The position numbers and the translations under genes were made by a program. The notes under the pieces are model-generated. The model had not been told where the DNA came from. It made no database searches and saw only the letters and a program-made list of their open reading frames with translations. DNA of 17,082 nt, taken from Octopus sinensis (lineage: Eukaryota). This document shows positions 3,628-14,205 of the stretch, one piece after another (position 1 is the first letter of the stretch; each line of letters opens with the position of its first letter). Location: the NCBI RefSeq assembly GCF_006345805.1, contig NW_021824953.1, forward strand, positions 1 to 17,082, written 5' to 3'.

Positions 3628-3745
3628 TCACCGTCACCGTCACCGACCAGGCTATCAGATGTTGCTACAAATCGCTGGTCACAATGCGATTTGCATTGTT
3701 TTAGCCTTCAAATGACACCACCCCGCTGGCTAAGCGAGCAGGTCA
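3628..3745 (+). mobile_element. Unclassified ~118 bp structured interspersed repeat in a TA tract, copy 1
   Basis: Closely matches the reverse complement of 11540-11658 (GACCAG...GATGTTGCTACA...CTGGTCACAATGCG...CATTGTTTTAGCCTTCAAAT...CCCCGCTG.CTAAGCGAGCAGG). Strand is arbitrary. Confidence 0.85.
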
Positions 3746-3957
3746 TGTATATATATATATATATATATATGGCTATGCATATATATCCATATGTTACGTA
3801 TATACATACACTTACATATTTAAACACACAGTCATATATATATATATATATTATATAAATTAGAGACAAAACCACTATTATGGAAATCAAACAAAGAAAG
3901 ACTTAATCCAATACATAAATTAATTTATATTATTTAGTAATTTAACAATTTTTATAT

Positions 3958-4021
3958 CCACTACGATCGTTTCATGTCTTCTTTTCATCACATCTTTGAG
4001 TGGTAGACATTCTTCAGGTGG
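3958..4021 (-). ncRNA. Minimal type I hammerhead ribozyme
   Basis: Minus strand reads CCAC-CTGAAGA-ATGTCT-(25 nt)-AGACAT-GAAA-CGATCG-TA-GTGG. All core nucleotides are present, with stems I and II and a palindromic stem III. Confidence 0.85.
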
Positions 4022-4084
4022 TTTCAAACATTCTTGGCGAGTTTAAACTATGAACTAGTTTAAACTCGCCAAGAATGTTTGAAA

Positions 4085-4148
4085 CCACCTGAAGAATGTC
4101 TAATACTCAAAGATGTGATGAAAAGAAGACATGAAACGATCGTAGTGG
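4085..4148 (+). ncRNA. Minimal type I hammerhead ribozyme
   Basis: CCAC(4085-88) CTGAAGA(4089-95) ATGTCT(4096-4101) loop AGACAT(4127-32) GAAA(4133-36) CGATCG(4137-42) TA GTGG(4145-48). Predicted cleavage after GUA at 4144. Confidence 0.87.
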
Positions 4149-4264
4149 ATATTAATAATTGTTAAATTACTAAATAATATAAATTAATTTATGTATTGGA
4201 TTAAATCCTAAATCTGATTTTTCCCTGTAAGTTTGGATTTATTCCCTAATATTTATTATTAATT

Positions 4265-4295
<31 letters not shown>

Positions 4296-4486
4296 GTGTG
4301 TGTCTATTCGTCCTCTATATTAAACATATCCAGCCTTGCTTCAAATGGTGCGAGTCATTATTTATCAACCTGACAAATGCCGGAAGATGGCAGAAGCACA
4401 AGCTGCTGCCGCCGGTGGTTGTTGCGATTGTGGTGGTGGAGATGATAATGATGATACATAGTTCGATGTAATGAGATGAGGTTGTT

Positions 4487-6192: not shown

Positions 6193-6252
6193 CACACACA
6201 CACACACATACACACACACACACACACACATACACACACGCATACACACATA
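6123..6252. repeat. (CA)n microsatellite
   Basis: Seen directly. Confidence 0.95.
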
Positions 6253-6548
6253 TGCACGAAAAAATACGATAAACACGAATATATATAATTTGTTCCTGCG
6301 TACGTTTCACTGTTGTGGCTGTTTTGAACTCGACATTCGATGTTCCACACTCACTATTTTTATCGCATTATGTCTTCTAAACTTTAGTGTTCCCAGAGGA
6401 TCCATTATGATTAGGCATCCGATTACTTGCAGTATCCGCTGCAGAGTTCCAAACAGTCACAATGGTGCATCGTATGTAGGGAACAAATGATATAGATTGG
6501 TGTTTATCATCTTTCCTCCTACATTTCCTCAGTATACCATAACTAGTA

Positions 6549-8960: not shown

Positions 8961-9339
8961 ATACGTATAGATGTTTCTAAGCATACAGAGATATGTATTT
9001 ATAAGTATATATATATTTATATATGTATAAACAAAAACGGGCTAAGAGATTTCAGATTGGCCACTGGGACTAATTTGAGCAGCACAAACACCATATATTA
9101 GAAACTCCTGATTTATTAAAAGAATCTTTGCTTCTATAATATGTGTCATGATTATCACATGGAAATTCAGACAAGCTCCATATCTGAAGGGCACAGAATC
9201 GCAATAATAAGGTGTTCTCCAAACATGACATCCGCCTTTAATTTCTTTTTGACACCACTACAACATTTTTTAAACACTTTCCCTCTCGTGTTGCCTTCTT
9301 TTTTTGTTTATTGCCTGACATGAGATACACAAGCCCAAA

Positions 9340-9381
9340 CTGGTCACAATGCGCTTCCTCGCTTTGCCTTAGCTTACAAAT
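9340..9381 (+). mobile_element. Degenerate fragment of the ~118 bp repeat family
   Basis: CTGGTCACAATGCG is identical to copies 1 and 2, followed by a diverged ...TTAGCTTACAAAT. Confidence 0.5.
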
Positions 9382-9395
9382 ATTTCCACTGCGTT

Positions 9396-9434
9396 GTATG
9401 TATGTATGTATGTATATATCTATATCTATATCTG

Positions 9435-9472
<38 letters not shown>

Positions 9473-9509
9473 CTATCTATCTATCTATCTATCTATATAT
9501 ATATAGATA

Positions 9510-9550
<41 letters not shown>
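9396..9550. repeat. Compound (TATG)n/(TATC)n/(TA)n microsatellite
   Basis: Seen directly. Confidence 0.95.
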
Positions 9551-9558
<8 letters not shown>

Positions 9559-9764
9559 TAATTAGGGCTTAGTAAAATAAATTACTTTGCCACATACTGA
9601 ATTTTCTAGAATAGCAGCCAATAGCTGCTATTTCTAGAAAGTAATTATTTTACTAAGACCTAATTATATAATGAATATTTGAATACGCCTTAAATGGTCC
9701 TTTTACATACTGAACACTACTTGGTGAAAATTGATTAATAACTAATTAATTTTACCTCAATTAT

Positions 9765-9798
<34 letters not shown>

Positions 9799-10022
9799 AT
9801 ATCAATAATTGAGGGTAAACTTAATTAGTTATTAATCAATTTCACCAAGTAGTGTTCAGTATGTAAAAGGACCATTTAAGGCGTATTCAAAATATTACAT
9901 TATATAATTAGGTCTTAGTAAAATAAATTACTTTCTAGAAATAGCAGCTATTGGCTGCTATTTCTAGAAAATTCAGTATGTGGCAAAGTAATTTATTTTA
10001 CTAAGCCCTAATTATATAATTT
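9551..10022. mobile_element. Two inverted copies of a ~216 bp TA-embedded fold-back element forming a ~470 bp palindrome
   Basis: 9551-9766 is the reverse complement of 9803-10022 around a central TA run. Each copy has its own hairpin (apex TAGCAGC-CAATA-GCTGCTA) plus an unpaired tail. Confidence 0.8.
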
Positions 10023-10056
10023 ATATATATATATATATATATATAGATAGATGAAA

Positions 10057-10226
10057 TTGGTGAAATTGATTAATAACTAATTAAGTTTACCCTCAATATT
10101 GATATATATATATATTATATATATCAATAATTGAGGGTAAACTTAATAGTTATTAATCAATTTCACCAAGTAGTGTTCAGTATGTTAAAAGGACCATTAA
10201 GGCGTATTCAAAATATTACATATAAT
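10057..10226. repeat. Partial further copy of the centre of the 9551-10022 palindrome
   Basis: TTGGTGAAATTGATTAATAAC...CCTCAATATTG-(TA)n-CAATAATTGAGGG...GGCGTATTCAAAATATTACA repeats about 9721-9900. Confidence 0.85.
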
Positions 10227-10290
10227 ATATATTATATATATAATATAATCTATATTATATCTATATATTATATATAATATATATGTTATA

Positions 10291-10985
10291 CAATACAAAA
10301 TGGGACAAGAATGCAAGGCAACCAGATAGTTAGGGGATACAAAAAGGGGACAACGAAATATCCACACAGGCGTTACAAGGAAAACAAGGATGGGTCATTC
10401 GAAGTTTTCTATCCTCAGTAGAGTTCCAGATTATCTTTGCAATTTCGGCTGGTTATACTCGAGATTGCTACAATCTGGCCACCCCAAGGAAAAAATAAGC
10501 TAAGAGCATTAGATTCCTTGGAAGAAAGCAGCGAATGTGTATGAAAACAAGGACGGAAAATGTTACAATGCAATTAACAGGACATAACAACAGGTGTCTT
10601 TCGACTAAGGACGAATTAAATTAAGCTGGCATGTGTAGAAGTAAAGCCTTACAACAGGAACATGCGATATAACAGGCACAGGGAGGAATATAGATGCTGC
10701 ACGGATGATAGTCGATCCAAGAAAGAAAGGTCAGGCCTGGCCGAACACCGGTCACGAGGGGAGAGAAGAGAGAGAGGCACAGGGCTAGAAGAATTAAGGA
10801 GGGGCGAGAAAAAATGAGACACAGTAAAGTGAGAGAGGAGAGAAAGTGAGCATGAAGTGAAGGTGAGGAAATGTGAGAGAGAGGGACGAAAGAACGAAGA
10901 GTGGAATGAAGGAAGAGTGTAAAATGACTGACAGAAGAAAGAAAAGAATGAAAGAATACAAAGAATAATAGAGTCGTACAAAATT
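10291..10985. mobile_element. Unclassified interspersed repeat embedded in a TA tract, possibly a Penelope-like 3' fragment on the minus strand
   Basis: A ~700 bp purine-skewed, higher-GC block with sharp TA-repeat boundaries on both sides and internal hairpins. No credible ORF. Confidence 0.4.
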
Positions 10986-11033
10986 TATACATATATATAA
11001 TACTCATATATATTATATCTATCTATCTATCTA

Positions 11034-11120
<87 letters not shown>
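10986..11120. repeat. (TATC)n/(TA)n microsatellite
   Basis: Seen directly. Confidence 0.95.
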
Positions 11121-11125
<5 letters not shown>

Positions 11126-11417
11126 TTCGAGATAAAACACTATTTTGCAAATCAAACAAGGAAAGACTTAAGATTAAAACTGACTAGAAGATCGGAAATC
11201 CACCTGACGAATGTCATTTGAAGACATGAAACAATTGTAGTGGCGATTTATTTACTTTATATTAAAATTTTTTATGTATTGATTAAGTCTTCCTTGTTGA
11301 TTTGGCAAAATAGTGGTTTTGTCTCGAATTAATATTATATAAATATTTACTATAAAATTGGATTTAATCCTAAATCTGATTTTTTTCCCTGTAAATTTGG
11401 ATTTATTCCCTAATATT

Positions 11418-11422
<5 letters not shown>
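11121..11422 (+). mobile_element. Fold-back Penelope-like (pLTR-derived) element with hammerhead ribozyme, copy 2
   Basis: ~51 bp inverted repeats (11121-11171/11283-11333), an internal hammerhead, and a 3' tail (ATCCTAAATCTGATTTTT...GGATTTATTCCCTAATATTTATTA) shared with about 4205-4258. Flanked by TA repeats. Confidence 0.75.
11200..11243 (+). ncRNA. Minimal type I hammerhead ribozyme
   Basis: CCAC-CTGACGA-ATGTC-ATTTGAA-GACAT-GAAA-CAATTG-TA-GTGG with an intact core. Predicted cleavage after GUA at 11239. Confidence 0.9.
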
Positions 11423-11457
<35 letters not shown>

Positions 11458-11500
11458 TAGATATATATATATATATATAATATATATATATATATAATAT
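11423..11500. repeat. (TA)n microsatellite
   Basis: Seen directly. Confidence 0.95.
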
Positions 11501-11539
11501 GAGTATGTATACATGTTGCGTGTATATATATATACAATT

Positions 11540-11658
11540 GGGCCTGCTCGCTTAGGCAGCGGGGTGACGTGATTTGAAGGCTAAAACAATGCGAGGCGCA
11601 TTGTGACCAGCGATGTGTAGCAACATCTAATAGACTGGTCGGTCCCGTGATCACGCGA
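11540..11658 (-). mobile_element. Unclassified ~118 bp structured repeat, copy 2 (inverted relative to copy 1)
   Basis: Reverse complement matches 3628-3745. Flanked by the direct repeat TATACATGTTGCGTGT. Confidence 0.85.
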
Positions 11659-11809
11659 TATATATATATGTATATACATGTTGCGTGTGTGTGTGTATAT
11701 ATATATATATGTGTGTGGTGTGGTGTGTGTGTGTGTGTACACACATACATGCGTATGCATAGATATCACCATTTGCAGCAGCAGTAGCATTTCTCGCCGT
11801 CTCTGCCTG

Positions 11810-12002
11810 CGACAGATTGTGCATTGTTCTGAGATAGTTATCCCCCATAATAATCGATCTTTGGGAAGAGAGTTCAGAAAAATGTTGCCGCTGTCCATGC
11901 TGTAACGTTCCAATTCCATTTCTAAGGCTGCCGAGCTCTGTTGTTTTTTCTGTTGACGCCTTCCAAACAGATCTTCTTCGTTCATCCATTCCAGCTTGCA
12001 AC
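11810..12002 (-). pseudogene. Degenerate LINE (RTE-like) AP-endonuclease N-terminal fragment
   Basis: Minus strand reads VASWNG*T (cf. ASWNVRT), then after a frameshift SAALEMELERYSMD (cf. TALxAxELxRYxID), then after another shift FSEL (cf. LSET). Motif order is right, but there is a stop and there are frameshifts. Confidence 0.5.
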
Positions 12003-12447
12003 TTGTTTACTATTTAAGGACGTCATGAACGTCTGTTTCGCGGTAGATCTCTTCCAACAGGTAGCCATATCACATCACGACCAAACTTGATGTTGCTGCA
12101 GTATGGCCATATTCATTTCACTCAATCAATAAAAGAAATCAGAAATCATACCTGAGTTATAATTGCTTCATATTGAGCTAATTAATATATTCATTGATTT
12201 TTATATGTCCAATCCGTTAATATACATCCGTAGAATCACATATATCGATCTGCGAGAGACGATGCTTTTTTTTGTTTGAGTTTTTGAGTTTTACTTCGTT
12301 AAACTTTTAGCCTGAATAAATTGTGTTAATTGCTAAGAATCTATCGTTGTTGGAATTTTATTTGGGTTCTGTATAGTTAAAAAAAATTTTTTATATAAGA
12401 ATCAGTGAAATTCGTTGATTGGAACCAGTGCCACAAAATAGAGCAGG

Positions 12448-12700
12448 AAGAAGATCGTGGGAAGACAGACAGACAGACAGAAAGAATAAGTAGGGGTTAG
12501 AAGAAGAGAAGACAAAGAAGAACACGAATAAGATGGAGGAGAAGAAGTGTAGGAGGAAGACAAAGAAGAAATGACCAGAGAAGAAGCTATATAAAAGCAA
12601 AAACGATGACGATGATGACGACTACGAGTAGAGGTAGTGAGAAAACAAGATGATTCACTAATTAGATAGAGAGAGTTTTGAAAGAGAGAGAGAGAGAGAT
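12448..12700. repeat. Purine-rich low-complexity tract with (GACA)n, (GAA)n, (GAT/GAC)n and (GA)n
   Basis: Seen directly. Confidence 0.75.
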
Positions 12701-13360
12701 TAGACGAAACGGTTGTAGGTCTTCTTGATGTTTGCTTTTTGTGTCTTTCTTTATTGGAGGCGGTTTAGTGTTTATTAAAAAGCTAAGCAACAACAACAAC
12801 AACAATGGGTTAGTGGAATCAGGAATAGGAGAATGTTTAATGATGTGTATTCGACAGATTCTACCCCACCCCACCCACACACTCACACATACGGACAGAA
12901 GTGATAGGAAAGAAAGCGTAGAAGTGACACAATGTCAGATTGATATCTGACAAGCAAGTTTATCTTACGTCCGACAAATTTGAGAAGAGATAAATATGAA
13001 TTTCTCTTCTCTTAGTAAATTATACAAATATTTCCGATTTCCAAGCAAAAATATGTATAAACTGTAGAGTTTATACATATTGTATACATATGTACAATAT
13101 TGACTACTTATTTCTCTCGTATGTAAAAACAATGTATATAATATAATATATATATATATATATATATATAGTCAGGTAAAAAATAATAACTCGTAGAATA
13201 ATGTGGAAACTCGTCCACAGTTCTTGGCTACCTGATATCATCATAGAGTAGAAATGCATACGCTATTGGATTTACTTCAAGAATTGCATAGTGTCCGTGG
13301 AACTTAAATAAAACGATCAGAGATAGAAACTGGAATTCATGAGTTTCTTCATTCAAAATC

Positions 13361-13932
13361 TTTTAAAGCAAGATCCTTGCTATATCTTCTCGGCATTTCA
13401 CTTTGCCTTTTAATAATGTAGAGCTGGGTAGGTGTTGCCCTTTAGCAGCTCTCAGATAAAACTGAGAAACAAAAAACACCTACGGTCAAAAGTAAAATAC
13501 ACTGATAAAATTTCATAGACAAATAAAAAAAGTACATAAGATAAAACATACATGAAATCAATATAAAGATATAATTAATAGAAATCCCAAAAAATGCATT
13601 AAAGGCGTTCATTTGATTATAAACTCCCATCAGATAGAGGAAGAAAAAATTTCATAGACTAGGAAATAAAGAAAGGGCTAGATAATAGTTGGGGGTCAAA
13701 ATGCGACTGGTCACTGAGTACATGTCAGTTAGGCCTAATTTCCTTTCTTCTGAGTCTACCTGGCGTCTACCTTATCTTACGACAGATGTGTGCCTCCAAT
13801 TTAGAGTTAATGTATTACCATCAGTTTAATACCTCGTCTGAGAGCTGCTAGAATGCAACACCTACCCAGCTATACATTATTAAAAGGCGAAGTGAAATGG
13901 AAAAAATATATAGCGAGGATCTTGCTTTAAAA
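13361..13932. mobile_element. MITE-like or fold-back element with ~95-105 bp imperfect inverted repeats
   Basis: 13361-13456 (TTTTAAAGCAAGATCC...GCTGGGTAGGTGTTGC...AGCAGCTCTCAGA) is the reverse complement of 13837-13932. The spacer is ~380 bp and non-coding. Confidence 0.75.
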
Positions 13933-14087
13933 TTCCCCGAGGAAGTGAATTCAACACCTGTGATGCGAGACAATTGATTGCACAGCATCTCACACTTGAG
14001 CTACAGGTGCGAGAATGAATTAAAACAATGGTAGTGGATTTGGATAATCCTGTGAATTCCATTTTAGGTCTCTGATATATCTACGAA

Positions 14088-14205
14088 CACATGCATACAT
14101 ACATGCATACAGGCAGGTAAGCAGGCATACATATACATGCATGCATACACACACACACACACACACCACACACACACACACACATAACACACACACACAC
14201 ACACA
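14088..14205. repeat. (CATG/CATA)n and (CA)n microsatellite
   Basis: Seen directly. Confidence 0.9.

Follow-up and report, generated by a model that had tools for sequence, protein, structure and literature searches.

A hammerhead-bearing palindrome in an Octopus sinensis contig as a probable head-to-head insertion of a non-autonomous Penelope-like element

The stretch of Octopus sinensis DNA analyzed here (17,082 nucleotides; hereafter the window) contains a large fold-back at 3903–4204. Its arms occupy 3903–4050 (148 nt) and 4056–4204 (149 nt) and align with 145 identities over 148 positions, three mismatches and one 1-nt gap; the innermost 47 arm pairs are free of mismatches, and the loop comprises 5 nt (4051–4055). 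An earlier note, made from the sequence alone, had described arms of about 148 bp, a 5-nt loop and few differences, among them ACCA versus AATA in loop II and a small indel, and the alignment bears out each of these points. The left arm, on the minus strand, is an inverted copy of a terminal repeat encompassing a leader, a hammerhead and an AT-rich spacer, while the right arm, on the plus strand, is the direct copy. The two meet head to head at a junction (4040–4066) in which a local 10-nt palindrome lies on either side of the loop. Folded as RNA, 3890–4215 reaches −225.5 kcal/mol (z = −39), a stability matched by none of 100 shuffled sequences, and cruciform extrusion of 3903–4204, judged from the sequence, is plausible.

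The element is larger than the arms. It spans 3852–4264, between an (AT)n microsatellite on the left (3834–3851), the likely target, and a (TA)n microsatellite on the right (4265–4288), and its ends are unlike: the left end is module A (3852–3902, minus strand), the 3' end of the inverted copy, and the right end is module B (4205–4264, plus strand), a one-sided tail. Module A matches 11119–11171 (87%) and 11283–11338, and module B matches 11358–11412; these matches fall in a second, diverged family member at 11116–11412 (plus strand), which also has (TA)n on both sides. Sequence comparison resolves this second copy into an inverted A (11116–11171), a 29-nt leader, a hammerhead (11200–11243), a spacer, a direct A (11283–11338), another spacer and B (11358–11412). 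Its hammerhead has a compact loop II, and the palindrome of its helix III is compensated; its link to 3903–4204 is absent from the earlier note.

Both window copies confine module B to the right end, as a one-sided tail of 60–80 nt, and in both a 29-nt leader (20 identities) precedes helix I, so that the 5' end of the family looks fixed. The inverted segment measures about 200 bp at 3852–4050 versus 56 bp at 11116–11171. In the Penelope-like (PLE) reading developed below, the terminal repeat is about 210–240 nt long and consists of leader, minimal hammerhead, spacer, module A and module B. The right arm of 3852–4264 departs from this order, as module A and its spacer are absent there, between two 9-nt direct repeats. 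Contigs of four sequencing runs have loose ends at 4195 (38, 37, 26 and 6 contigs), which indicates that the spacer precedes B in most family contigs, as it does in 11116–11412; the right arm of 3852–4264 would then have lost module A and spacer between the two 9-nt repeats. A target-site duplication is unreadable within (TA)n, and the four runs, in which the flanks have no cover, contain no joint across the element. The window contains no tandem array of period above 33.

MITE and foldback DNA elements are small, palindromic and present at high copy number in TA-rich sites. A DNA-type element of this kind, or a Helentron-like one with a subterminal inverted repeat, that had captured a hammerhead and moved by cut-and-paste or rolling circle would fit the inverted repeats, the small size, the very high copy number of the ends and the TA-rich target, as well as a similar layout at 9553–9762 that lacks the CUGAnGA core. 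We compared modules A and B as possible diverged copies of each other. While the full comparison was suggestive (17 of 2000 shuffles as good), kinship was rejected once the shared 9-nt anchor was removed, as 613 of 2000 shuffles were then as good, and 895 of 2000 for the second element. The ends are therefore not terminal inverted repeats. Unlike MITE and foldback elements, 3852–4264 has unlike termini, the length of the inversion varies between family members, and a ribozyme whose core is conserved across the family lies inside. We consider a DNA-type origin quite unlikely.

Other inverted structures occur in the window. A 468-bp fold-back at 9553–10020 has arms that are 95% alike, arranged tail to tail and centered on a (TA)n tract; like 11116–11412, each arm consists of an inverted module, an internal module and a tail that runs into (TA)n, but a CUGAnGA core is lacking. 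Further partial copies lie at 10057–10217. Two inverted copies of 96 bp at 13361–13456 and 13837–13932, 89% alike and separated by 380 bp, lie about 190 bp from a (TA)n tract and are possibly another inverted insertion, and a diverged inverted pair (about 80%) at 6252–6331 and 6444–6524 lies beside a long (CA)n tract. In addition, a 100-bp SINE-like repeat is present at 3642–3742 and 11543–11643 in opposite orientations (90% alike). One copy lies to the left of 3852–4264 and the other to the right of 11116–11412, in both cases 110–130 bp outside the element, an arrangement that may be due to chance in this repeat-dense region.

The earlier note had also placed an intact, outward-pointing hammerhead on each strand. 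Both motifs are found, as minimal type I hammerheads at 3958–4021 (minus strand; predicted cut 3' of 3962, GUA) and 4085–4148 (plus strand; predicted cut 3' of 4144, GUA), but they are intact only in the sense of a dimer-type minimal motif. The motif at 4085–4148 has a helix I of 4 bp, the core CUGAAGA/GAAA, a helix II of 5–6 bp with a long loop, and a helix III made of a self-complementary 8-mer. A general descriptor, requiring the core, a palindromic helix III and minimum lengths of 3 bp for helix I and 4 bp for helix II, matched the window only at 3958–4021, 4085–4148 and 11200–11243, and matched none of 500 shuffled windows; a minus-strand CUGAGGA word at 6532 does not fit it. Alignments to Rfam Hammerhead_1 (RF00163), the sole ribozyme family matched, were full-length, with scores of 16.2 bits (E 0.14) and 14.5 bits (E 0.45), below the cut-off of 34. 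A whole-window Rfam search gave no ribozyme among the 150 of 152 matches listed. A microRNA at 4003–4103 was considered and rejected, microRNA models matching the hairpin far below cut-off.

In RNA folding of a single copy, helix III comprises only 2 pairs, with a pairing probability of at most 0.02, while the minimum-energy fold of two copies is a dimeric hammerhead for all three motifs. Helix III is thus predicted to form only between two RNA copies, and a single arm should cut poorly; according to these models, the single-arm RNA (4056–4260) that the earlier note had put forward as a cleavage control would probably be nearly inactive too. Inside the motif, the differences between the two subfamilies in the window are limited to N7, loop II and a double change in helix III that preserves its self-complementarity. 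Variant sites in 4085–4148 (six substitution and two indel sites, at more than 3 in 100) all fall at N7 or in loop II, with none in the 32 core and stem positions, a pattern that points to selection on the fold at the level of the family. In the PLE reading, the hammerhead would be inherited with the terminal repeat and would depend on dimers.

The support for the palindrome in sequencing data was assessed by comparing the window with contigs of four runs, including X1, X2, X7 and X22, three of them deep; two subsurface metatranscriptomes with a small window share (0.04) were left out of the comparison. Part of the window is present in 21 of the 22 runs listed, and more than half of it in one. 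Among the pieces listed, difference-free contigs at 4021–4085 cross the loop in two of the four runs, X1 (depth 5.4) and X2 (depth 2.1), and their length of 65 nt is the span expected from words unique to the 5-nt loop, assuming k = 31. A contig without differences, carrying the exact right-arm allele 4056–4133, is likewise present in X1 (depth 25.8) and X2 (depth 7.0). No centre-spanning piece is among those listed for X22 or X7, where holes prove nothing. A joint from 4080 to 4026 in X1, mirror-symmetric about the loop, was set aside as a mapping effect.

An assembly or library fold-back artefact could be suspected, given that in X1 and X2 the junction contig reaches only 0.2–0.3 of the depth of the adjacent right-arm allele, that the assembly may derive from X1, and that the flanks (3775–3843 and 4258–4395) have no cover in any of the four runs, where repeat masking and filters apply and holes prove nothing. 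However, low depth at a hairpin centre would be expected from loss of the hairpin by snap-back during short-read library preparation. Moreover, the arms are distinguished by 4 differences and by the family modules in which they end, which is not what a simple assembly fold-back gives, and the same asymmetric junction occurs in two runs that have different study and organism codes, even if these may be related data. An artefact is thus very improbable, and we conclude that the 3903–4204 palindrome is real. Palindromes of this type may be under-assembled in general.

The repeat belongs to an abundant family. With mirror bins added, the summed contig depth in X1, which is not a copy number, is about 2,300 near the centre, 9,000–14,000 over the hammerhead, 670,000 over module A and 1,500,000 over module B, and very high values over module A recur in all three deep runs. 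From centre to hammerhead to ends, depth rises by about 1:5:300–1000 in both X1 and X2, and in X1 there is no step at the predicted cut site (11,900 to 14,200). If the right-arm allele is single copy, these depths correspond roughly to 60–90 copies of the centre, 270–550 of the hammerhead and tens of thousands of the ends, as orders of magnitude. The high depth of the ends fits 5' truncation, but may in part reflect better conservation of the ends.

Another fold-back at this position occurs in the family. Two X2 contigs carry loose letters before 4062 that, continued into the window, give a perfect palindrome whose centre differs; the longest loose end stops 15 letters past that centre, which is the signature of a perfect palindrome at an assumed k of 31; for this second centre a library chimera is possible. 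The recurrence bears on whether a single hammerhead copy was inserted and later duplicated in place, by a replication template switch at a local palindrome, in which case the fold-back would say nothing about transposition. Both arms do belong to one subfamily and differ at only 4 places, a 10-nt local palindrome is present at the junction, and the window holds another large fold-back (9553–10020). Such an event would nevertheless have to coincide with the other fold-back centre at the same position in X2, with the same inverted module A at the left end of 11116–11412, and with two ends that stop at family-defined modules instead of at random places. A template switch in place is accordingly an improbable origin of the palindrome.

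We did not find a description of this hammerhead-repeat family in the literature, and it may already sit in a repeat library under another name. Five pattern scans, for the hammerhead or for the tail, gave no matches in collections of viral, metagenome and prokaryote sequences. The repeats of the window appear to resemble those of cephalopod (Octopus) DNA. Penelope-like elements have been reported to make up 6.83% of the O. vulgaris genome, in a study whose supplement mentions hammerheads 0 times (PMC13282606), and 235 Hammerhead_1 hits have been listed for the giant squid (PMC6962438).

The earlier note had proposed that in a read-through transcript from either direction the antisense arm could block the ribozyme, and that the resulting duplex could be a substrate for ADAR or Dicer. 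Both consequences would follow if the locus is read through. The masking holds in folding models, in which the hammerhead stems have a pairing probability of 0.000 in read-through RNA of either strand, and a duplex of 148 bp is of the kind that ADAR and Dicer generically accept. As to the clustered A-to-G changes that the note had suggested looking for, the single run guessed to be RNA contains no more than two A>G or T>C sites, which stand isolated and of which one also occurs in a DNA run, and it provides no contig depth over 3959–4073; both observations are weak either way. Complete masking in the folds, together with the small RNAs that PLE copies yield in rotifers (PMC3846280), would be compatible with a selected regulatory device, in which read-through of the locus would bring the ribozyme under silencing by the antisense arm, and the duplex, as an ADAR or Dicer substrate, would have a function for the host. 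We give this idea very little credence: the junction transcript is not seen in the one RNA-guessed run (a weak point), the exact junction is absent for X22 among the pieces listed, no host gene was located in the window, and the mechanics of PLE insertion account for the layout, so that a regulatory purpose is unneeded. If transcribed, full-length fold-backs would provide long duplexes on which editing or small-RNA pathways could act directly.

The features observed directly are the anatomy with its unlike ends, the flanking (TA)n, membership of a high-copy family and the recurrence of the fold-back; we read them as those of a non-autonomous PLE retroelement. That 3852–4264 is such an element, reduced to its terminal repeat and inserted as a head-to-head pair, is in our assessment likely. 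The layout is a known one for the PLE class, and the family itself, repeat libraries aside, appears to be a previously undescribed member. A point against this reading is that no reverse transcriptase (RT) or endonuclease frame was found in the window, where none of 84 frames (stop-to-stop, at least 45 aa, low-complexity frames dropped) gave any match above a Pfam cut-off. The window contains no tRNA gene. By analogy with published PLE work, an RT/GIY-YIG protein encoded elsewhere would nick the (TA)n tract; a PLE protein, a predicted dimer, is reported to nick AT-rich DNA on both strands and to act without a need for hammerhead cleavage (PMC11167929).

The element RNA would then be reverse-transcribed from one of two starts, the end of A or the end of B, consistent with reports of PLE reverse transcription from two RNA sites that bound the tail (PMC11167929), and we propose that the choice between these start points produces the one-sided tail. 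At the fixed 5' end of the RNA, the short local palindrome may serve to prime the cDNA, which would snap back on itself or anneal with another cDNA started from the opposite strand, and would thereby give rise to an inverted copy, long at 3852–4050, where it includes the hammerhead, and short at 11116. The burial of the hammerhead in a 148-bp duplex in read-through RNA would be a by-product of this process and not a selected switch. Further points against the PLE reading are the tail, longer than the published 30–40 bp, the departures of the hammerhead from the published consensus, the unreadable target-site duplication and the right arm without module A, which needs an extra deletion or a template jump.

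A more specific possibility is that the self-complementary helix III serves as an RNA dimerization signal. Two element RNAs, pairing by way of their hammerheads, would be bound by a dimeric PLE protein and reverse-transcribed from the two nicked strands, with joining at the fixed 5' ends, such that the twin-hammerhead palindrome would be the direct imprint of a transposition intermediate. Should a subfamily without module A exist, the arms of 3852–4264 would stem from two different RNAs and simple snap-back would be ruled out. We regard this proposal as unlikely, since inverted insertions are also made by Naiad elements, which lack canonical hammerheads (PMC8557442), and since mutants defective in cleavage retain insertion in vitro (PMC11167929).

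As a single locus, 3852–4264 is of little weight, being one insertion of an abundant repeat. The formation of inverted structures in PLEs is, however, stated to be open (PMC8557442), with self-priming only inferred (PMC3846280), and the family is useful in this regard. It can be read in one piece, its 5' end is fixed and its two 3' ends are defined, its subfamilies are diagnostic, and the copies with a hammerhead probably number in the hundreds. In a family this short and marker-bearing, a genome-wide count of how often the two arms share subfamily marks would separate snap-back from two-template models.

The arrangement has close counterparts among known PLEs. PLE insertions often carry an inverted, 5'-truncated copy at their 5' end and a 30–40 bp tail at one end; their hammerheads sit in the terminal repeats, and their (TA)n bias is known (PMC8557442). 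Abundant head-to-head inverted repeats with junction palindromes have been described and read as the result of self-priming (PMC3846280). Like the PLE pseudo-LTRs with an adjacent inverted copy (Pen2a_Av and Pen3a_Av; Craig et al. 2021, Fig. 2; PMC3846280, PMC8557442), 3852–4264 has an inverted copy head to head with a direct terminal repeat, a junction palindrome, a tail at one end only, an AT-rich/(TA)n target and a repeat near 200 bp. Unlike them, it has no reading frame between the repeats, its tail is 60–80 nt long versus the published 30–40, its ends are present at very high copy number, and its target-site duplication is not readable.

The ribozymes likewise resemble the minimal hammerheads of metazoan PLEs (PMC4209133) in being type I, with a short helix I, a small palindromic helix III, a predicted dependence on dimers and an AU-rich 3' flank. 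Minimal hammerheads of this class are dimer-dependent, with no cleavage by a single motif (PMC4209133; Cervera and De la Pena 2014), and in Schistosoma hammerhead pairs lie on opposite strands, 100–700 bp apart (PMC4209133, 2014). The motif at 4085–4148 has an A10.1–U11.1 pair and no extra nucleotide after A9, and is therefore off the published consensus (>80%), which has an extra nucleotide after A9 and a G10.1–C11.1 pair (PMC4209133). The closest motifs in form are those of Marsupenaeus japonicus and Drosophila willistoni (Fig. S3 of PMC4209133), and the shrimp PLE motif also has A10.1–U11.1, lacks the extra nucleotide and is cleaved after A. As both departures are shared with the shrimp, the 4085–4148 motif is a variant form. 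The 3903–4204 subfamily differs from the metazoan PLE motifs in its loop II of 25–27 nt and in harboring two motifs within one near-perfect palindrome.

Animal non-LTR retrozymes (PMC7229834; bioRxiv 10.64898/2026.07.22.740005) are similar in that they are short and non-coding, carry a type I hammerhead and have been proposed to originate from PLE terminal repeats. They form head-to-tail arrays in which neighboring hammerheads dimerize in one RNA (bioRxiv 10.64898/2026.07.22.740005; PMC7229834), whereas the copies in 3852–4264 are head to head, so that one RNA never carries two sense motifs. The Penelope promoter lies inside the repeat (PMC2377424), which makes outward transcripts from the centre possible, each with an unmasked motif.
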